Assembly: GCA_965214055.1 (NCBI GenBank)
Contig: OZ243931.1
Coordinates: 2,607,380-2,671,379 of the forward strand
DNA length: 64,000 bases
Direction of reading: 5' to 3'
Source: Candidatus Poriferihabitaceae bacterium
Lineage (GTDB): Bacteria; Pseudomonadota; Gammaproteobacteria; Arenicellales; Poriferihabitantaceae
Shown: piece by piece, positions 53,203 through 61,486 of the stretch
Layout of the letters: every line of letters begins with the position of its first letter
How positions within the stretch are numbered: the first letter of the stretch is position 1
Position numbers and translations under genes: made by a program
Notes under the pieces: generated by a model
What the model was told of the DNA's origin: nothing
Database searches by the model: none
What the model saw: only the letters and a program-made list of their open reading frames with translations

Positions 53203-54363
53203 TTGTCACTGCATTTTACAGCCGAAGAATATCAGTACAGGATCGGGAATGCACGCCGTGCAATGGCCGGGAGGGACCTCGACGGCATGTTGCTGTTTGC
53301 ACCGGAAAGCCACTATTACCTGACCGGATACGACACGTTTGGATATGCCATGTTCCAGTGCATGGTGCTGTCCGCCGACGGAGACATCCACCTGTTTACC
53401 CGCCTGCCGGATTTGCGGCAGGCACAGCAGACATCGGTTCTGCCGGATTCTCACATTCACCTGTGGCATGATTGGGAAGGTGTGGACCCATTTCAGGGCC
53501 TGTACCGGTTACTGCAGCAAATCGGCCTGGGAAGTGCCCGGTTGGGCATTGAAACCAATACAGTGGGACTGAATGCCTTCAACGGACAGAAACTGCATAG
53601 GGCGCTCCAGGAAAAAGGGTCCCTGGTGGAGGCATCCGATCTCATCAGCGGGCTGCGCCGGCAAAAAAGTGAACAGGAAATCGAGTACCACAAAAAGGCG
53701 GCGGCGCTGAGCGATGATGCGCTGGATGCCGCGGTCGCCATGACCACGGCCGGGGTCTTTGAGGGGGAGATCCTTGCCGCCATGCAGGGGGCGGTTTTCC
53801 GGGGCGGGGGCAGTTATGCGGGAAACGAGTTTATCGTCGGTTCCGGCGAGGGAGCGCTATTGTGCCGATACCAGTCGGGGCCGCGACACCTGGATGAATC
53901 GGATCAATTGACCCTGGAATGGGCGGGGGCGTATCACCGGTATCATTCGGCAATGATGCGAACCCTGGTCGTGGGTCCTGCATCGGAGACCCAGAAAAAA
54001 ATGCACGCCGCGGTGGTGGAAGCACTCCAGGCCTGCGAACAGGCCATACAACCGGGCCGGCCCATGGGGCAGGTCTACCAGGCCCACGCCACCGTCCTGG
54101 ATGAGCATGGACTGGGGCATGCCAGAATGAAAGCATGCGGGTATGGAATGGGGGCGGTATTCAACCCGATCTGGGTGGATTTTCCGATGTTCTATGAGGA
54201 CAATCCATTGCTCATGCATGCCGGAAATGTCTTTTTCCTCCACATGATCCTGATGGATTCCGATTCCGGGTATGCCATGTGCTGGGGGCATTCGGTGCTG
54301 GTGACCGAAACCGGGGTGGAAAGACTCAGCCGCTCTCCCCTGGATCTCGTGGAGAATCTTTGA
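53203..54363 (+). CDS. M24-family metallopeptidase/hydrolase with creatinase-type N-terminal domain
   Basis: 386 aa. N-terminal 'LDGMLLFAPESHYYLTGYDTFGY' (creatinase_N). The C-terminal pita-bread fold region carries metal-ligand-like residues ('GYGMG', 'NVFFLHMILMD'). TTG start. Confidence 0.75.
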   Translation: MSLHFTAEEYQYRIGNARRAMAGRDLDGMLLFAPESHYYLTGYDTFGYAMFQCMVLSADGDIHLFTRLPDLRQAQQTSVLPDSHIHLWHDWEGVDPFQGLYRLLQQIGLGSARLGIETNTVGLNAFNGQKLHRALQEKGSLVEASDLISGLRRQKSEQEIEYHKKAAALSDDALDAAVAMTTAGVFEGEILAAMQGAVFRGGGSYAGNEFIVGSGEGALLCRYQSGPRHLDESDQLTLEWAGAYHRYHSAMMRTLVVGPASETQKKMHAAVVEALQACEQAIQPGRPMGQVYQAHATVLDEHGLGHARMKACGYGMGAVFNPIWVDFPMFYEDNPLLMHAGNVFFLHMILMDSDSGYAMCWGHSVLVTETGVERLSRSPLDLVENL

Positions 54364-54522
54364 CCGGCCCATTGTGTTTCGGTGGTGAAGACTGCCGGCA
54401 TGTGGGGGCTGATCATGTGGGCACAATGGAAAGGGGTGTGCATTCCGGTCACGGGAAGCCAGCCCCGAGGCATGTATGCCAGGCAGCGAGCGAGTTCGGT
54501 TATTGTTCGCCTTTCCCCCGAA

Positions 54523-57500
54523 TTATTTTGCAGGAGGAATGGAAACATCAATTACGCAGACCCGGATTTTTAATTGCTCTTCATTCAGGAGCGTGTTTTT
54601 CAAAAGATCCGCGAGTTCGCCAGGACTTCCTGGAGGGGGTCCTGTCTCTGGTGGTGTCGGGTGATCGCCTTTTCTATCTCCGAACCAAAACACAAGATAG
54701 ATGCCATGCCCGCCCGTCCCAGAATCTATAACGTATTTAGCAATAAGTGGTGATCGGATCGCACTCCAGAGATCTTGGCTACTGCTTTTCTTGACTTCGA
54801 TGGGCACATTGAAGTCGTGGTGAGAAACACGAATGTCCGCCCGTTTGTCATTGGCGTAGCGGCCTTCCGCCTCAACGTTAATACCAAGGTGCGCCAACCT
54901 GCTCTTCAAATTCGGCAGCAGCGCATCACGGCATGAAGGTTCCGGTCGTGTGTTCTGTGGGCGGTTGTGCCCATCTACATTCCAGTATTGACGCCAGTCG
55001 GAGGTGTTGCCGTTGCGAATGTGGTTGGCGATCTCGTTCAAATGCTCGAAAGTCAGCGCCGCCAGGTCGGCTGCATTTGCTGGTGCTTTCCTGTCCAGTG
55101 TGTCAAGCACCTGGATAACGCCATAATAGCGGAATTCGGCTTCGCGGCGGATCGCTTTTTGTCGATATGTAGCGTCTATGAGAAAGGAGCGCCAAGGACG
55201 CAGTGCGTTGTTGGAAGATAACACGTCAAGAGCTTTGGTGGCGTCTGCGGACGAAATGATCGCCAACTGCTCAATGAAATCTCGGACCCGGTCCGCAGCA
55301 TTCATTTCCAGTCCCACCATGATTTTTTGGTGGGAGGCGTCACCAAGGGAGTATGGTCTGCAGGACGCACCGATGAGTCGGATCAGGAGGAGCAAAGCAG
55401 GAACGTTTCGAAGGTGTTGCAGATCAGGTAAGAGGTGGAATTGTCTGGATACGGCCTCCGCAAGGAAACGGATCCGGCGTTCTTTTCCAGTCGCATAAGA
55501 GTCCAGTCGATCGATGTAAGAGTCCGGCGCAATGCAAAGGCCGGCGGCCAGCCAGTGGACGCGTTGTGCCACGTTCATATCGCGATGAGCGAGTTTCCTT
55601 TCGATGAGTTCCAGAAGCGGTTCGATATCGTAGTGTTGTCTGGCTGCCAGCAACAGATGGTCCAAACTCGACAACTGATCGGAAGTGCAACGCACGGGAA
55701 AGCGCTTGAGCAGAGGCATGGTGGCCAAGGGGGCGACGCGAGCGTAGTCAGGGGAATGGGCCAGTTTATGGAGTCCCGCGGGAGATACCACGCCGTTGCG
55801 CAATTTGGAGAGAATTGTTCTGACCAACATGTCGGCAACCACCTCAGGACGGTTGGATAGCAACCAGCTGAACCAACGCGGTGACCGGTTCTCTGGAGGC
55901 CTCGCGGTGGGCCACATAGGCACGGTATAGTGAACAGCCAGGGCCAACCGCAAACGGCTTTCTTCTCTTTCGGTCTCACCCGATAGTGCGGACTCTGGGA
56001 TTTCTTCCAGTCCAGCCATGAATGGATGCGCAAGGGGATGCGTCCGGTTCGAGGTCCCGAGGCGTATGATTTGTGTATCCGAAGGGAGATCGTCTCGTTC
56101 GATGGTCCTGCGAAACCCGGACAGGACGGCCTCGACCAAGCTCTCGTCGTTGGCCAAGAGAGCATTCAGCCTGTCTCTTGGTGAATCGCCTCGAACATTG
56201 AGGTATTTGCCGAAATACACTCCGGCAAGTTCGTGCAAAAGAGCGGATGATGCCATATTTCCACGCAGTTCGTTCTCGTGCGGTTTCACTTGGTCGTGCC
56301 AGTTCGGCTGCTTGGTTTGCGCTCGGCGTTCGGAAACGCTCATGTCGGAGACCGGCGCTTCAAGCTCAGCCAATTTCTGGTCAAATATATCCTGAAGGTC
56401 GGAGTATCCAGCCAGCCGACCCGATACAACATCGCGGGAAAGACCGTCGTCGAAGCGACGGCAGTGCAGGCATATCGCAATTTCGCCTAGGAGCCACTCA
56501 GCAGCCCTTTCGTCTTCCGCGAGGATTGCCTGATCGAGGCACCAAAAAGCAAAATCGGATGGCGGTTCGGTACGGAGGAGGCGATCATGCTCTTCTTGGT
56601 ACATGCAGTGGTATGGTTCGAAGCATTCGGATGAGCCGATACAATGCTTGAGGCTCATGATCAGCAGGGTCTTCCATGCGGCAGGGCGTCTTTCGAGCCA
56701 TCCGCGAATTTTTTCGTTGTCTGGACAGTAGCGCCCGTCGGCTACTGCGTGTACCACGGGTCCCAACCAGTGGAACAAGTGGGTCAGGTCCACATCATCT
56801 TCTGATAGGCAAAGAAACCGCTCCAAGAGATCCGTGGGCAACCGGCGTAAGAAGCCAGCGGGATATCCATGCATCGCTTCTTTCGAGAGCAGTTGAGCGT
56901 AGTGTTCAGCGAGTTGGTCAAGAAGAAGGGCGAGTTGATTTCTCGTCGAACTCTTTGGAAGGTGTAAGTTCCAGAAAGATTCATATTCGGGGCAATAGCT
57001 GGGTTTGCGCGAAACCCGGAGATAATGCATGACCTCGGTTTCCGAGATCGCCTCGGGATAGAGGGTGTACAGCAGACAGCCGAGCAGGGCGTCGTCGGGA
57101 TCTGGAATTTTTCCAGCATAAACGTCGGTGGTCAGCACTTTGAGTTCCGCGAAAGCTTTTTCGTCATTTCCCCGGTGTTGCACGAACGCGTCGATGGCAC
57201 GATGCCGAATCCTCGGCCACCACGAGGCATCGCGTATCAGATTCATCAACGGGTCGGCAAGTTCTGGAAGTGGCTCGCCATCCTGGAGTGCTTCGAGCAG
57301 GATAACAATGAAAGATTGCCACGAATCCTGTCTCGACGGGTTGGTCAAGAACTCGCGGAATTGGTCCGCCATGTCGGAGGACACTAGATCACCGAGTCGC
57401 GAATCCGACTGAACCGTGACGATCAGGCGGGGATTTGCTGCGGTTTCCCGTTTGAGGCCGTGCAGAAGCCGTCCCTTTTCTTTTGGCGAGAAGTGTTGGG

Positions 57501-58629
57501 CATCACCGTACAGGACGGTTCCGAGGGGGTCGCGTTCGATCACCTCGGCCCGGCTGAGGTTACTGTGGGCCGCGAGCCACGCGGAAAGACCGCGCAATTC
57601 GGAAACCACGACGCTGTCATGTCCGGTGATCAGTGCGAGAATTCGCCCGACCGGTAGCCCTTTCCTGACAAGAACAGCCAAGTAGTTGGCGGCGAGAAAC
57701 TCCGCGATCTGACGGTGAACGGGAACTGTCCGGTGCTGAGTCAGGGTTTTGAACAACTTGCTCTGCAGGCAGTTGCGAAGTATCGCCCGGTCTTTTCCCG
57801 GTATCTGGTCGAGTCCAAGGAAATTCCGGTCGTTGTCCGTGTCAAAACGCAAGTAGTATCCGGAGGTACCGGTTAACAATTGTATGGCGCAAAGCCTGCC
57901 GCTGGCATTCATCAGATCGGAAACGCTGCCGTGATCTGGTTGCGCTACCCAATGCTCTTCATTGTGTTCCACCAGCAGGGTGCGGCAAGCCATATCGAAG
58001 GCCTCCATCCTGGTGTTGGGCCAACCCGTGTGTGATCCGACCGCGACCGCGAGCATTTTAAGGGTTTGAGGATTGGCCAGTAGTTCCTGGAGACCTTTGT
58101 TCTGGGCCGAAGCGATGAAATTCTCTGGATCATCGATTCCGAGATTTTCACGCAGGATTCGACGAACGTCCTGATCGGACAGAGGCTCGAGGCGTAGGAC
58201 CGTGATGGTTTCGTCGGGTGCGACCGACTGGAGTTGGTTGCGGTCGTTCGTGCCAAACCAATCGGCCTCACGACACGACAGGCGGAAGTGCGGTCGCCCC
58301 ATTTTTTTGAGTTTGGCGCGGATACTGTCCAAGGGTGTCCGTCCGTCGGCGATTCCTGCCCGCGCCTCGTCAAGCCCGTCGATAAATAAGGTTGTATCGT
58401 GCCACTCGGGCCTGTCGTCGAAGGTCAGGAAATTGCGCACAGTGACGTAGGATCCGCGTTGGCGGTTAGCTTCACGGTTGAAAGTGGTGGTCTTACCGGA
58501 GCCCGGAGGGCCAAGCAGAACGTAGGCCTTCTTATCCTCCCATTTCTCTACAGGCTGAGGCGGAAGTTCCGACCCACCGCGAGAATCGTTTTGCAGAATT
58601 TCGCGACACTTTCGTGAAACGGCGTTCAT
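54523..58629 (-). CDS. 1368-aa STAND/NACHT-like P-loop NTPase with long helical middle region and C-terminal PD-(D/E)xK nuclease-like domain
   Basis: - Walker A is 'GPPGSGKTT' (K46; nt 58486-58512).
- Walker B is 'LFIDGLDEA' (D84/D87/E88).
- An 'LANPQTLKML' segment follows.
- About 1000 aa of helical sequence has no recognised motif.
- The C-terminus reads 'VEAEGRYANDKRADIRVSHHDFNVPIEVKK' (D1265, E1278, K1280; nt ~54790-54870).
- The start codon overlaps the stop of the upstream ATPase gene (ATGA at 58626-58629). Confidence 0.8.
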   Translation of the reverse strand: MNAVSRKCREILQNDSRGGSELPPQPVEKWEDKKAYVLLGPPGSGKTTTFNREANRQRGSYVTVRNFLTFDDRPEWHDTTLFIDGLDEARAGIADGRTPLDSIRAKLKKMGRPHFRLSCREADWFGTNDRNQLQSVAPDETITVLRLEPLSDQDVRRILRENLGIDDPENFIASAQNKGLQELLANPQTLKMLAVAVGSHTGWPNTRMEAFDMACRTLLVEHNEEHWVAQPDHGSVSDLMNASGRLCAIQLLTGTSGYYLRFDTDNDRNFLGLDQIPGKDRAILRNCLQSKLFKTLTQHRTVPVHRQIAEFLAANYLAVLVRKGLPVGRILALITGHDSVVVSELRGLSAWLAAHSNLSRAEVIERDPLGTVLYGDAQHFSPKEKGRLLHGLKRETAANPRLIVTVQSDSRLGDLVSSDMADQFREFLTNPSRQDSWQSFIVILLEALQDGEPLPELADPLMNLIRDASWWPRIRHRAIDAFVQHRGNDEKAFAELKVLTTDVYAGKIPDPDDALLGCLLYTLYPEAISETEVMHYLRVSRKPSYCPEYESFWNLHLPKSSTRNQLALLLDQLAEHYAQLLSKEAMHGYPAGFLRRLPTDLLERFLCLSEDDVDLTHLFHWLGPVVHAVADGRYCPDNEKIRGWLERRPAAWKTLLIMSLKHCIGSSECFEPYHCMYQEEHDRLLRTEPPSDFAFWCLDQAILAEDERAAEWLLGEIAICLHCRRFDDGLSRDVVSGRLAGYSDLQDIFDQKLAELEAPVSDMSVSERRAQTKQPNWHDQVKPHENELRGNMASSALLHELAGVYFGKYLNVRGDSPRDRLNALLANDESLVEAVLSGFRRTIERDDLPSDTQIIRLGTSNRTHPLAHPFMAGLEEIPESALSGETEREESRLRLALAVHYTVPMWPTARPPENRSPRWFSWLLSNRPEVVADMLVRTILSKLRNGVVSPAGLHKLAHSPDYARVAPLATMPLLKRFPVRCTSDQLSSLDHLLLAARQHYDIEPLLELIERKLAHRDMNVAQRVHWLAAGLCIAPDSYIDRLDSYATGKERRIRFLAEAVSRQFHLLPDLQHLRNVPALLLLIRLIGASCRPYSLGDASHQKIMVGLEMNAADRVRDFIEQLAIISSADATKALDVLSSNNALRPWRSFLIDATYRQKAIRREAEFRYYGVIQVLDTLDRKAPANAADLAALTFEHLNEIANHIRNGNTSDWRQYWNVDGHNRPQNTRPEPSCRDALLPNLKSRLAHLGINVEAEGRYANDKRADIRVSHHDFNVPIEVKKSSSQDLWSAIRSPLIAKYVIDSGTGGHGIYLVFWFGDRKGDHPTPPETGPPPGSPGELADLLKNTLLNEEQLKIRVCVIDVSIPPAK

Positions 58630-59903
58630 TGGTCGTCAAACCATTTCGAAGCGGGAGTTGAAAGACACTCAGAAATTGAAAGACCGCCCTCGCCTACAAC
58701 GACGGATTCTCGAACGTCGAAGCGTTCTGCAAATCGTTCAAGTCCGCTTGTCCTGATCTTGCGTGCGCCGCTTTTGACCTCGAAGACAACCAATCTTCGA
58801 CCGCGTGTCAAGACGAAATCCACTTCGGAGCCGTTCTCGCGCCAATAGTACAGGTGGTGTTCGGGCGTACCCGTATTGAAAAGATGCGCGCCCACCGCGC
58901 TTTCGACAAGACGCCCCCAATAGCTCCGGTCCGCCTTCGCTTCCTCAAACGTGTATTCCGAGGCAACCGCCATGAGCGCGGTGTTGAGAACGTTGAGTTT
59001 GGGGCTGGAGGACCTCCGTTGATGGGTCCCGGTGTAATATTTGAGGAGACCTGTAATCAGACCCGCTTTCGACAGGAGGTCCAGATACCGCGCCAGGGTC
59101 GTTGTATTTCCAGCGTCCTGAAGTTGGCCGAGCATCTTGTTGTATGAAAGGATCTGTCCAGAGTACTCGGTACCGAGCTGAAACAGCCGCTTCAGCAGTG
59201 CAGGCTTGTCCACTCGCTGCATAGCGAGAATGTCACGCTCGATATTGGGTTCAACCAACGCCTCGGCGATGTACGCACGCCATTTAGCCTGCTCCCAGAT
59301 GAGTGGGGCACTTCCCGGGTAGCCCCCGAAATAGACATAGTGCTGAAGATCGAAGCCGAATGCCGCCGACATTTCGGTGAACGACCAGTGCGTAAGACGG
59401 ACGGTCTCGAATCTGCCGGCAAGGCTTTCACTCATTCCCTGCTGCATCAGCAACGGGGCCGAACCCAGTAGAATGATATGAAGTGGGCGATCATACCGCC
59501 GGTCTGCATCCCAGAGCCCCTTGACCGTTTCTGACCAGTTCGGGATTTTCTGTATTTCGTCAATCGCCAGAACAAATCCCCGGTCAGAATTCTGGGCAAC
59601 CATCCGTGCCAGCTCCCAGTGCTGGATGAGCCAAGGTGTGTCTCTGGGGCCGGCGAGCGGGATTGTTGGTGGGTCCCCAAATTCAGGGGGGAGGTTCCTC
59701 AAGCCTAAATCCGAGGGCAGGGTGGCGCGTTCCGGCTCATCGGTCGATACATAACGAGATGGCCGGTCGATCTGTCCAAGCACCTGCAGAACCAGAGTGG
59801 TCTTGCCAGTTTGGCGCGGACCGGTCACGATTGTGAGGTGTCGGGGCTTCTCGTTCAGCTGGCTGAACAAGGTCGAAATCTGGGTTCGTTCATAAACTGT
59901 CAT
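58626..59903 (-). CDS. AAA ATPase with C-terminal DUF4143 (PD-(D/E)xK-like) domain
   Basis: 425 aa. Walker A 'GPRQTGKTTL', Walker B 'VLAIDEIQ', 'LGSAP...SESLAGR' and C-terminal 'GSEVDFVL...VVFEVKSG'. Confidence 0.85.
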   Translation of the reverse strand: MTVYERTQISTLFSQLNEKPRHLTIVTGPRQTGKTTLVLQVLGQIDRPSRYVSTDEPERATLPSDLGLRNLPPEFGDPPTIPLAGPRDTPWLIQHWELARMVAQNSDRGFVLAIDEIQKIPNWSETVKGLWDADRRYDRPLHIILLGSAPLLMQQGMSESLAGRFETVRLTHWSFTEMSAAFGFDLQHYVYFGGYPGSAPLIWEQAKWRAYIAEALVEPNIERDILAMQRVDKPALLKRLFQLGTEYSGQILSYNKMLGQLQDAGNTTTLARYLDLLSKAGLITGLLKYYTGTHQRRSSSPKLNVLNTALMAVASEYTFEEAKADRSYWGRLVESAVGAHLFNTGTPEHHLYYWRENGSEVDFVLTRGRRLVVFEVKSGARKIRTSGLERFAERFDVRESVVVGEGGLSISECLSTPASKWFDDQ

Positions 59904-59909
59904 GGCATA

Positions 59910-59915
59910 ATTATA
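59910..59915 (-). promoter_or_regulatory. Consensus -10 hexamer (TATAAT on minus strand) 6 nt upstream of the ATPase ATG
   Basis: Plus-strand ATTATA at 59910-59915. The last T is 7 nt from the A of the ATG (59903), which predicts a leaderless mRNA. No Shine-Dalgarno sequence is possible in the 6-nt gap. Confidence 0.45.
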
Positions 59916-59917
59916 CT

Positions 59918-59941
59918 GTATTGAGTAAATTTACTCAATAC
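59918..59941. promoter_or_regulatory. Perfect 24-bp palindrome (putative operator)
   Basis: GTATTGAGTAAA|TTTACTCAATAC, checked base by base. It is directly adjacent to the -10 hexamer and covers the spacer and -35 position. Confidence 0.6.
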
Positions 59942-60022
59942 AAGCGCAAAATCGATCAGATCGCAGTCTGAGTGCCTATGGCTACCGGGTGGCAAGCGCT
60001 ACGAAGCGGTGTTTGCGATGGA

Positions 60023-60109
60023 TCACCACCCGGGCCGGGTTGAGTGCGGCAGACCGGGAAAGAACGCCCCGAGGTGTCTTCGTATAGACTCGTCAGGCAG
60101 CCGTGTCAT
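60023..60109 (-). pseudogene. 28-codon stump resembling the N-terminus of a DUF5615 (PIN-like) toxin
   Basis: 'MTRLPDESIRRHLGAFFPGLPHSTRPGW*'. The start overlaps the end of the DUF433 gene by 17 nt. 'L.DE(S/N)(I/L)' is the usual DUF5615 opening. It is truncated after 28 aa. Confidence 0.3.
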
Positions 60110-60317
60110 CGCCGCCGGCGGCCTGCACCGCAGTCCCTCGTTCCAGCATCCCGATCGCCTGGGCCCGGGTCACGGTGGGGTAGTCTACCAGGAAGTCGTC
60201 GAGCCGGTCCCCCGCCTCCAGATGCTCCATCAGGATGCGCACCGGCACCCGGGTTCCCGCGAACACGGGGGTTCCCCCCAGGATGTCCGGGTTCCTGTCG
60301 ATCAGCTTATCGGTCAT
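60093..60317 (-). CDS. DUF433 domain protein (antitoxin-like)
   Basis: 74 aa. 'ILGGTPVFAGTRVPVRILMEHLEAGDRLDDFLVDYPTVTRAQA' follows the DUF433 pattern. Confidence 0.75.
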   Translation of the reverse strand: MTDKLIDRNPDILGGTPVFAGTRVPVRILMEHLEAGDRLDDFLVDYPTVTRAQAIGMLERGTAVQAAGGDDTAA

Positions 60318-60337
60318 CGTTAATCTCCGGACAACGG

Positions 60338-61486
60338 CTATCCGGTCCGCAATGTTTTGAGTTCATCCACCGTCGGGCAGCCAAGCTGTGCCAGGGTACC
60401 CCGGAGTTCTTCCCTGAAGATTTTCATGATGTGCCGGGCTCCCGGGTCCCCCAGTGCCGCCATGGCATAGTAGAACGGACGGCCCATCATGACAAGGTCG
60501 GCTCCGAGAAACAGCAGGCGGGCAATATCCAGGCCATTTCGGACCCCTCCATCCACAATGAGGGCAAAATCCTCCCCGGTGGCGGCCCGGATGTCCCGAA
60601 CCATGTTGCAGGGAGCGGGTGCGGCGGCAAGCTGCCGTCCCCCGTGGTTGGAAACGACGATCCCGTCCACCCCCAGGTCCCGGCACATGGCCGCTTCACG
60701 GGGGCTCAACACTCCCTTTACCAGCAATTTCCCATTCCATCGTTTTCGCAGTTGCCGGATGGCATCGGGGGTGATGTGCCCGGTCATGATATCCGAAAGA
60801 TAGTGGAGTGCCTCATTGCCCTTCAGCGCTTCCGGGATGTACGGGTCCAGGGTCTGGAATGACGGAAAACCCTTTCTGGCCATGGCGAATGTCCACTGTG
60901 GGTGCATGGCTGCCTGCCAGAGTTTTCGGAAGTCAAACCGGACCGGAACGGAAAACCCATTCAGGATGTCGTGGTCCCGTCGCACGGGTGCGGGGACATC
61001 AACGGTTACCAGCAGTACTTCGTACCCCGCGGCCTCCGCCCGATTGAGAAGGTCTTCTTCAATGGTGGAGAGATTCGGCCGGTACAGCTGAAACCAGGTG
61101 CAGGGGCCCGCACAGTCATACAGCGTCTCCAGGCTGGCCATGGCGAACGTGGAGGCCACGAATGGAATGCCCTGTTCCCGGGATGCCCGGGCGAGGCTTT
61201 CTGCAGAATTGGGCCAGGCCATACCGCCGAGGCCAACCGGGGCAACGCCAAAGGGTGCACTGAACGTTTGGCCCAGAAACTCTTTGTGCATGGTCACCTT
61301 ATCGGAGTTGATGAGGTAGCGGGGGACCAGTTTTATCTGGTCCAGCGCATGGCGGTTGCGTTTGACCGCCTCCCCGCGCCCCATTCCACAATACAGGTAC
61401 TCCCATACAAATGCAGGCAACCGCTTTTGTGCGGCCTGTTCCAGGTAAGCCGCCGAGGGGTATTTGCGCTCCAGAGCCGGTTGCAT
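60338..61486 (-). CDS. FMN-dependent alpha-hydroxy-acid dehydrogenase/oxidase (LldD/glycolate oxidase family)
   Basis: 382 aa. 'GIVVSNHGGRQL', 'IVDGGVRNGLDI' and 'GADLVMMGRPF' motifs. Confidence 0.85.
   Translation of the reverse strand: MQPALERKYPSAAYLEQAAQKRLPAFVWEYLYCGMGRGEAVKRNRHALDQIKLVPRYLINSDKVTMHKEFLGQTFSAPFGVAPVGLGGMAWPNSAESLARASREQGIPFVASTFAMASLETLYDCAGPCTWFQLYRPNLSTIEEDLLNRAEAAGYEVLLVTVDVPAPVRRDHDILNGFSVPVRFDFRKLWQAAMHPQWTFAMARKGFPSFQTLDPYIPEALKGNEALHYLSDIMTGHITPDAIRQLRKRWNGKLLVKGVLSPREAAMCRDLGVDGIVVSNHGGRQLAAAPAPCNMVRDIRAATGEDFALIVDGGVRNGLDIARLLFLGADLVMMGRPFYYAMAALGDPGARHIMKIFREELRGTLAQLGCPTVDELKTLRTG

Follow-up and report, generated by a model that had tools for sequence, protein, structure and literature searches.

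In the Avs and bNACHT families of bacterial defence proteins, oligomerisation induced by a trigger is the expected mechanism. Two further named families, EruA and HyoA, are curated in NCBIfam, each under the title "NACHT domain-containing antiphage protein" (EruA, NF058535; HyoA, NF058534). A 2026 census reports PDC-S01 as one of the commonest putative prokaryotic defence genes; in its description, PDC-S01 is a very frequent candidate of a single gene that has no experimental validation and consists of an ATPase fused to a PD-(D/E)xK domain (PMC12988326). Here we analyse a stretch of 64,000 nucleotides (nt) from Candidatus Poriferihabitaceae bacterium (contig OZ243931.1; the whole stretch is called the window, and its own numbering is used), in which a gene for a PDC-S01-type ATPase and a gene for an EruA-like protein form one cassette. 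Judging from its sequence, the most fitting interpretation of the locus is a new variant, with two genes, of an NLR-type defence family that is already known, and we consider it rather probable that it is a self-contained two-gene module whose role is anti-phage defence. The cassette consists of the following.

58626-59903, minus strand: gene 1, an AAA+ ATPase of 425 amino acids (open reading frame (ORF) and translation)
54523-58629, minus strand: gene 2, an EruA-like protein of 1368 amino acids with a NACHT NTPase, an alpha-solenoid and a putative nuclease domain
58626-58629, minus strand: ATGA, in which the TGA stop of gene 1 overlaps the ATG start of gene 2

Both ORFs, all the motifs that a preliminary description of this DNA had quoted and the stop/start overlap were recovered in the translations and at these positions. 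The ATGA junction of gene 1 and gene 2 is a predicted translational coupling. Both ORFs are beyond chance, since each has thousands of homologues, and the motif residues are almost totally invariant in the 63 small and 70 large homologues compared.

Composition of the two proteins

The large protein aligns with the EruA profile in a single colinear stretch (residues 24-1363 against positions 15-1318 of 1318; E 1.3e-265, 885 bits). The equivalog cut-off of this model is 1000 bits, and by that curated threshold the protein is not an equivalog of EruA; it belongs to a sister clade. A homologue on a Bradyrhizobium plasmid (pCW1_1), ~26-30% identical to the window protein, passes the cut-off with 1189.6 bits, and the Vibrio and Pantoea plasmid homologues stay under it with ~775 bits. 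The HyoA profile (NF058534, cut-off 1200 bits) matches more weakly and only in part (173 bits, E 7e-51; residues 914-1324 against positions 973-1388 of 1430). Because the protein is colinear with EruA over its full length and with HyoA in part, the order of a NACHT domain first and a nuclease last already belongs to a named kind. The preliminary description had taken this inverted order to be new and the cassette to be undescribed; neither view can be kept, given EruA and HyoA on one side and the identity of the small protein as PDC-S01 on the other. There are more than 3800 homologues of the large protein, which carry the recent Pfam family PF28130 (DUF8371), and the rhizobial EruA clade appears in database sources as "predicted NACHT family NTPase". 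Pfam and PADLOC gave only weak P-loop matches for the large protein (in Pfam, AAA_22, nSTAND3 and AAA_16). The Pfam NACHT model PF05729, which the preliminary description had named for a check, did not match at E ≤ 1, and the Avs and bNACHT models of PADLOC matched neither protein of the cassette. In pipeline annotation, the score under the EruA cut-off would leave the large gene labelled hypothetical and the small gene would be called a separate single-gene candidate, so that the operon would be missed.

Three regions of the large protein are distinguished.

57490-58542, minus strand: NACHT module, residues ~30-380, with nucleotide-binding domain, helical domain and winged-helix region
54955-57489, minus strand: all-helical alpha-solenoid, residues ~381-1225, from the secondary structure of AlphaFold2 (AF2) models
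54526-54954, minus strand: C-terminal PD-(D/E)xK-like domain, residues ~1226-1368, of alpha-beta-beta-beta-alpha-beta order in the AF2 model

Its motifs are GPPGSGKTT (K46), LFIDGLDEA (D84/D87/E88), LANPQTLKML and ADIRVSHHDFNVPIEVKK (D1265/E1278/K1280). A Walker A motif of the form GxxxxGK[ST] and a Walker B motif with an acidic DGLDE-type extension are thus both present, and the Walker A K46, the Walker B D84, D87/E88 of the DGLDE extension and R116/R120 are invariant in 70 of 70 homologues. The AF2 model of residues 1-700, built on a 55-sequence alignment (predicted local distance difference test score, pLDDT, 86.3; predicted TM-score, pTM, 0.81), presents, in the order of the chain, a P-loop alpha/beta domain, helical and winged-helix-like elements, and helical repeats. 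Among solved structures, Foldseek matched it to NLRC4 (4kxf, E 2e-8), NLRP3 (E 8.7e-6) and NAIP5 (E 2.3e-4), with ~500-550 aligned columns each, which bears out the NACHT/STAND-type NTPase proposed for the N-terminus. The long helical middle region that had been noted is an alpha-solenoid in the AF2 models, and its function is presumed to be that of a sensor or a scaffold. When it was compared with the PDB by Foldseek, HEAT/ARM-type solenoids came out best, and none of them was significant.

In the AF2 model of residues 681-1368 (pLDDT 83), the solenoid leads into a terminal unit of one helix, three strands, a second helix and a fourth strand. E1230 and R1234 are placed on the helix, E1255 on a strand, D1265 on strand 2 and E1278-x-K1280 on strand 3, and all six residues are invariant in 70 homologues from both the window clade and the EruA clade. 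The C-terminal 184 residues of 16 of 19 family members match the PADLOC LmuA model PDLC03853 (best E 4e-6), and two of the 19 match Cas4. The solenoid dominates the Foldseek matches of the 688-residue model, and a BFVD search returned only non-significant matches to small domains, one of them annotated Endonuclease. The proposal of a C-terminal nuclease therefore stands as far as the order of secondary structure and the invariant E...D...ExK residues go, and falls short of a significant match to a Pfam family or a known fold. Because support past the motif and the topology is weak, a PD-(D/E)xK nuclease is likely, not proven, for this domain.

The small protein carries GPRQTGKTTL (K34), LAIDEIQ (D115/E116) and EVDFVL...FEVKSG (E360/D362/E375/K377). 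From N- to C-terminus, it was found to contain the two Pfam domains anticipated for it, both above their gathering thresholds: AAA_14 (PF13173; residues ~21-178, 80.7 bits against a cut-off of 27, E 1.2e-22) and DUF4143 (PF13635; residues 222-379, 100.1 bits against 28.1, E 1.4e-28). More than 8000 homologues exist. K34, D115/E116, E360, D362 and E375 are invariant in 63 of them, and K377 is a lysine in 62 of the 63; the C-terminal E360/D362...E375-x-K377 appears nuclease-like. By its match to the PADLOC model PDLC04791 (E 4.9e-162; residues 4-422 against positions 2-394 of 395), the small protein is evidently already catalogued as the candidate PDC-S01. Six more PDC-S01 models match as well; the assignment refers to matches of the PADLOC hidden Markov models, not to PADLOC's system-calling rules.

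Conservation and distribution of the pair

A scan of one genome per species gave 80 loci with relatives of the large protein. In 66 of these, an ATPase homologue (49-84% identical) is located directly upstream on the same strand; 61 of the 66 pairs are intact, and the others are cut by contig ends, frameshifted or decayed along with the large gene. Of the 61 intact pairs, 58 have an NTGA junction, which reads ATGA in 55. The overlap is retained in at least 10 phyla, even where the large protein is only ~32% identical, the gene order is constant, and a third gene is never inserted between the ATPase gene and the NACHT gene. Identities to the small and to the large protein of the window co-vary across the loci (Pearson r = 0.93). 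Adjacency, order and co-evolution of the two genes are conserved, as the idea of a two-gene cassette had implied. In a rough neighbour-joining tree the paired NACHT genes form one clade, to which neither the solo EruA clade nor the sequences from Vibrio and Pantoea belong. Conversely, all three close ATPase homologues that were checked have a DUF8371 gene, whole or in fragments, overlapping downstream.

Almost all close relatives of the cassette stem from metagenome-assembled genomes (MAGs), which represent at least 10 phyla. Carriers include Alpha- and Gammaproteobacteria, Binatia, Latescibacterota, Acidobacteriota, Nitrospirales and Gemmatimonadota, and further Rhodothermales, Spirochaetia, Acidimicrobiales and Thermodesulfobacteriota. 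Cassettes are up to 65-69% identical across phylum boundaries, which argues for recent horizontal spread and suggests that this spread took place within one type of community. The bin labels and taxa of the 80 loci (L001-L080) resemble those of marine sponge or coral microbiome surveys, a habitat inferred from names only. The GC content of the cassette is 0.52-0.57, compared with 0.51-0.59 in the left flank and 0.58-0.62 in the right flank. The lower GC content that had been judged by eye is thus present, yet marginal, and the local signal is too weak as evidence of horizontal transfer; the horizontal acquisition proposed on that basis is plausible from the spread across phyla instead.

Do the two genes act together, or do they merely travel together? 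The main rival explanation is that the EruA-like NLR and the PDC-S01 ATPase would be separate single-gene defences, co-carried as a mini defence island and not cooperating. True EruA-clade genes stand solo in Mesorhizobium, in Methylocystis and on the Bradyrhizobium plasmid, as do the Vibrio and Pantoea copies, and no "EruB"-type partner as named in NCBIfam was found beside EruA-clade genes. An inner sub-clade of the paired lineage (L033, L034, L038, L040, L041, L048 and L073) has lost or displaced the ATPase and keeps all catalytic residues. A metagenome scan with the ATPase alignment added 80 relatives (L092-L171; 44-81% identical, from varied environments); an EruA-like gene follows in only 5 of the 26 loci with at least 4 kb downstream, and these five are among the closest ATPase relatives. 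Those that are at most 54% identical are mostly solo or beside other genes. In one of them (L100:4995-9343; 52% identical, with the same operator), the ATPase gene overlaps via ATGA a 1050-residue type I HsdR gene, which matches HsdR entries of the PDB at E 1e-29, so that the ATPase can couple to different defence genes. The solo relatives on both sides indicate that neither family is universally dependent on the other. PADLOC likewise treats PDC-S01 as a single-gene candidate, and co-transfer of linked genes would alone yield correlated divergence. Against independence stand the 4-nt overlap kept in 58 of 61 pairs over this range of phyla and identities, the invariable order free of any third gene, the reciprocal association of the close ATPase homologues, and a single promoter for both genes, as described below. 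The strictly kept overlap and order weaken the explanation by independent genes, and we regard it as unlikely.

Some loci show other arrangements. In L091 (6001-8324), an intact ATPase gene, whose product is 80% identical to that of the window, is followed at the NACHT position by two ORFs of 157 amino acids, probably a decayed large gene; an insertion sequence (IS; DDE_Tnp_1), a HicB-like gene and an AAA_21/AAA_15 ATPase are located nearby. Upstream of NACHT genes that lack the ATPase there is an Mrr_cat restriction endonuclease in L038 (5015-5914) and a phage-type integrase in L041 (840-2000). The large gene of L055 (4788-5849) is truncated beside an rve integrase (IS). In Methylocystis sp. 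JAN1 (L085:1-8984), genes for Mu-transposase-C, TniB and TniQ immediately precede the solo EruA-clade gene, which is apparently carried by a Tn7-like transposon as cargo and has a ParDE pair downstream. On the Bradyrhizobium plasmid (L083:10382-11245), a small ORF and a gene of the SIR2 family (weak match to the defence sirtuin Dsr2, E 1.8e-6) come after the EruA gene, which hints that the true EruA clade has a defence-island context.

In the window, the flanking genes belong to PhyH, His_biosynth, EamA and M24 peptidase on one side and to FMN_dh (FMN-dependent dehydrogenase), 3HCDH (3-hydroxyacyl-CoA dehydrogenase) and AMP-binding on the other, as determined by domain search, so the position of the cassette between housekeeping-type genes is correct. 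Most of 121 ORFs flanking the pair in 46 loci are also of housekeeping type, with a few PIN, Uma2, Schlafen/PDC-S03, AbiEi and type I restriction-modification genes among them; neither a third conserved gene nor a consistently linked transposase or integrase was found among these ORFs. An enrichment of defence genes near homologues, which the preliminary description had put up for testing, was not seen, the toxin-antitoxin, restriction-modification and abortive-infection genes being few, and with mostly housekeeping neighbours a defence-island context is not shown. No Rfam families or tRNAs are present in or near the cassette region. One further ORF belongs to the context, outside the cassette.

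60093-60317, minus strand: DUF433-type (antitoxin-like) ORF, 74 amino acids

This ORF, positioned between the FMN dehydrogenase gene and the cassette, is 93% identical to a PF04255 (DUF433) ORF in L086, another large contig with an 87%-identical ortholog and the same synteny as in the window. No ORF was found in 59943-60092, where ~150 nt of non-coding sequence occupy the position expected of a toxin, and L086 is arranged alike. At the site that had been reported as a decayed toxin-antitoxin locus, the antitoxin-like ORF is thus intact and no toxin ORF follows it.

The promoter and its palindrome

The upstream region of gene 1 contains three overlapping elements.

59910-59938, minus strand: predicted sigma-70-type promoter, with -35 hexamer TTGAGT (59938-59933), 17-nt spacer and -10 hexamer TATAAT (59915-59910)
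59917-59942, minus strand: perfect 26-nt palindrome TGTATTGAGTAAATTTACTCAATACA, a candidate operator over the -35 hexamer and spacer
59921-59938: palindrome core TTGAGTA-N4-TACTCAA

The promoter is the best promoter-like site in 54300-60400 (10 of 12 positions matching) and coincides with the palindrome; the same scan gave no separate promoter-like site before gene 2. The palindrome core occurs once in the window, against zero expected by chance. Only 6 nt lie between the -10 hexamer and the ATG at 59903, and no Shine-Dalgarno sequence is present in 59901-59942, from which a leaderless or near-leaderless mRNA is predicted. The spacing from promoter to ATG is conserved across loci and phyla: 59 of the 61 paired loci, across all sampled phyla, have the core 34-36 nt upstream of the start codon of the ATPase. 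Therefore, the operator-like palindrome of the preliminary description turns out to be a real, conserved cis-element. None of the solo NACHT loci and none of the EruA-clade loci has it, and in L033 it goes with the displaced ATPase gene and not with the NACHT gene. Among the metagenome ATPase relatives with enough upstream sequence, 62 of 75 have the palindrome within 100 nt upstream, against a chance estimate of ~0.3, and those bearing it mostly have no NACHT partner. Since the palindrome travels with the ATPase gene whether or not a NACHT gene follows, the operator is a property of this PDC-S01 ATPase subfamily. The factor that reads it must then travel with the ATPase gene as well, and the ATPase itself appears to be the best candidate reader. 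Its conserved stretch GNTTTLARYLDLLxxAGL and the winged helix of COG1373-type ATPases are the basis of a putative helix-turn-helix (HTH)-like region; an HTH in the window ATPase was not confirmed.

A conserved operator could also mean that the ATPase is purely transcriptional or autoregulatory, an unusually large repressor-sensor in a role like that of BrxR- or CapW-type regulators, with all immunity residing in the NACHT nuclease. The operator travels with the ATPase family whatever gene lies downstream, it overlaps the -35 hexamer and spacer, and in some loci there are two or three operator copies or half-sites, as would suit such a regulator. The Walker A and B motifs and the E/D/ExK residues of the ATPase, however, are invariant in all or nearly all 63 homologues, which argues for an enzymatic activity beyond DNA binding, and the DNA binding itself is putative, as is the HTH. 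We consider a solely regulatory ATPase improbable. A bolder form of the preferred two-gene reading is that PDC-S01 ATPases are sequence-specific DNA-binding AAA+ switches with a universal operator, pluggable before different defence effectors and here forming a two-component NLR; this is a tentative idea that we hold to be possible, if doubtful.

Further copies of the palindrome were observed. Second copies ~60-85 nt upstream are present in L012, L015-L018, L051 and L089/L090, and metagenome ATPase loci often have a third half-site, (A/T)TGAGTAAA, at, near or overlapping the start codon. Additional extended palindromes are located away from the ATPase promoter (L032:10662 and 12472; L030:15366; L024:5037; L060:10009; L067:9997; L058:3741; L089:3819), some of them just past the stop of the large gene, some with no obvious gene nearby, and some 120-130 nt before a pair consisting of an AbrB/MazE-type antitoxin and a PIN gene. 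They may be orphan operators, or may have been left behind by lost cassettes, or may belong to a small repeated element.

The palindromes off the promoter also bear on the view that the pair is not an immune system, being either a selfish or mobile cassette with the palindromes as its ends or recombination sites, or a cassette for DNA maintenance or host interaction in symbiont communities. The distribution over many MAG phyla at up to 65-69% identity, the insertion between housekeeping genes, the extra palindromes just past the large gene or elsewhere in some loci and the failure to find phage-borne copies would all fit. On the other hand, the pair has no consistent link to a transposase or integrase, and the palindrome keeps a constant distance to the ATG within the promoter, as is typical of operators and not of the ends of elements. 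The large protein, in turn, has homology to a family whose curated name is antiphage, and its architecture is that of known NLR-type defence proteins. We therefore find a non-immune cassette very improbable.

Proposed mechanism and comparison with described systems

Several points weigh against the reading of the locus as a two-gene defence module. The antiphage label of the large protein derives from the curated family name EruA, whose equivalog cut-off the window protein, at 885 bits, does not reach. Its C-terminal domain has no significant match in Pfam, among PDB sequences or by Foldseek, and an hhalign comparison of this C-terminus with the nuclease region of the ATPase gave a probability of <1%. 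The HTH in the ATPase has a single weak match (HTH_69, E 0.17). A sub-clade does without the ATPase, metagenome ATPase loci mostly lack an EruA-like gene, and more distant ATPase relatives are largely solo or next to other genes. The genes that adjoin the cassette, in the window and in relatives, are mostly housekeeping, and no copies of the cassette were found on viral contigs.

We propose the following model for the two-gene module. Both genes would be expressed from one leaderless transcript, from a TTGAGT-17-TATAAT promoter overlaid by the palindromic operator, with translation coupled at the ATGA. Gene 1 would supply a PDC-S01-type AAA+ ATPase with a nuclease-like motif of its own in the DUF4143 region; we infer that this ATPase binds the operator, probably as a dimer and through the HTH-like stretch in DUF4143, and thereby sets or gates expression of the operon. 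Gene 2 would supply a bacterial NLR of the EruA/HyoA kind, with a NACHT NTPase, an alpha-solenoid of ~850 residues and a C-terminal PD-(D/E)xK-type nuclease. This protein may recognise a phage-derived trigger through its solenoid, oligomerise in a nucleotide-dependent way and gather its C-terminal nuclease domains, which would then cut DNA and stop the infection; the activation through oligomerisation is drawn from analogy with Avs and bNACHT systems, and the defence role is putative. Possibly, the ATPase is in addition a DNA sensor, a co-effector or a licensing factor for the NACHT protein.

If the ATPase does license, sense for or activate an EruA-like NACHT nuclease, the two proteins would be the bacterial equivalent of paired sensor and helper NLRs and would give a first functional handle on PDC-S01, which is unvalidated and among the most abundant defence candidates. 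A clade that couples PDC-S01 to an NLR-type nuclease, together with a conserved operator, offers concrete and testable hypotheses on its role. A lineage with a non-autonomous NACHT protein next to solo EruA relatives is a natural setting in which paired forms can be compared with solo ones to study how such proteins are controlled. The tight, widely conserved ATPase-NACHT operon and the operator of the ATPase family appear to be the new part. A literature search, which did not reach the paper naming EruA, found no description of the two-gene coupling or of an operator of the ATPase family, and the PDC-S01 census does not mention a palindromic operator (PMC12988326).

Compared with EruA, the large protein shares the order of a NACHT domain, a helical middle and a C-terminal E/D/ExK domain over a full-length colinear match; the catalytic residues are invariant across the paired and EruA clades, and DUF8371 is common to both. 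It differs in belonging to a separate clade, only ~26-29% identical to members that pass the cut-off, and EruA-clade genes are solo, with neither an upstream DUF4143 ATPase nor the palindrome. HyoA has the C-terminal solenoid-plus-nuclease region in common with the large protein, but its match is partial and far weaker than that of EruA, and the N-terminal half of the window protein is not aligned. With Lamassu LmuA and with Cas4, the likeness is that of PD-(D/E)xK nuclease models to the C-terminal 184 residues of family members; the LmuA match is weak (in the window protein, E 0.015) and short, with ~50 residues that surround the D...ExK core, and the architecture is otherwise unrelated.

The small protein matches the PDC-S01 model PDLC04791 end to end and has the described make-up of an ATPase and a PD-(D/E)xK domain. 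Unlike the single-gene candidate of the catalogue, the ATPase gene comes first in a conserved operon of two overlapping genes, in the window and in 66 of the 80 related loci. Finally, Avs and bNACHT proteins resemble the large protein in that a STAND/NACHT NTPase is fused to a nuclease effector and to a sensor of repeats or a solenoid; the fold of the large protein matches animal NLRs. Their effector is usually N-terminal, whereas that of the window protein lies at the extreme C-terminus, past the sensor region, and the NACHT protein of the window has an obligate-looking ATPase partner.

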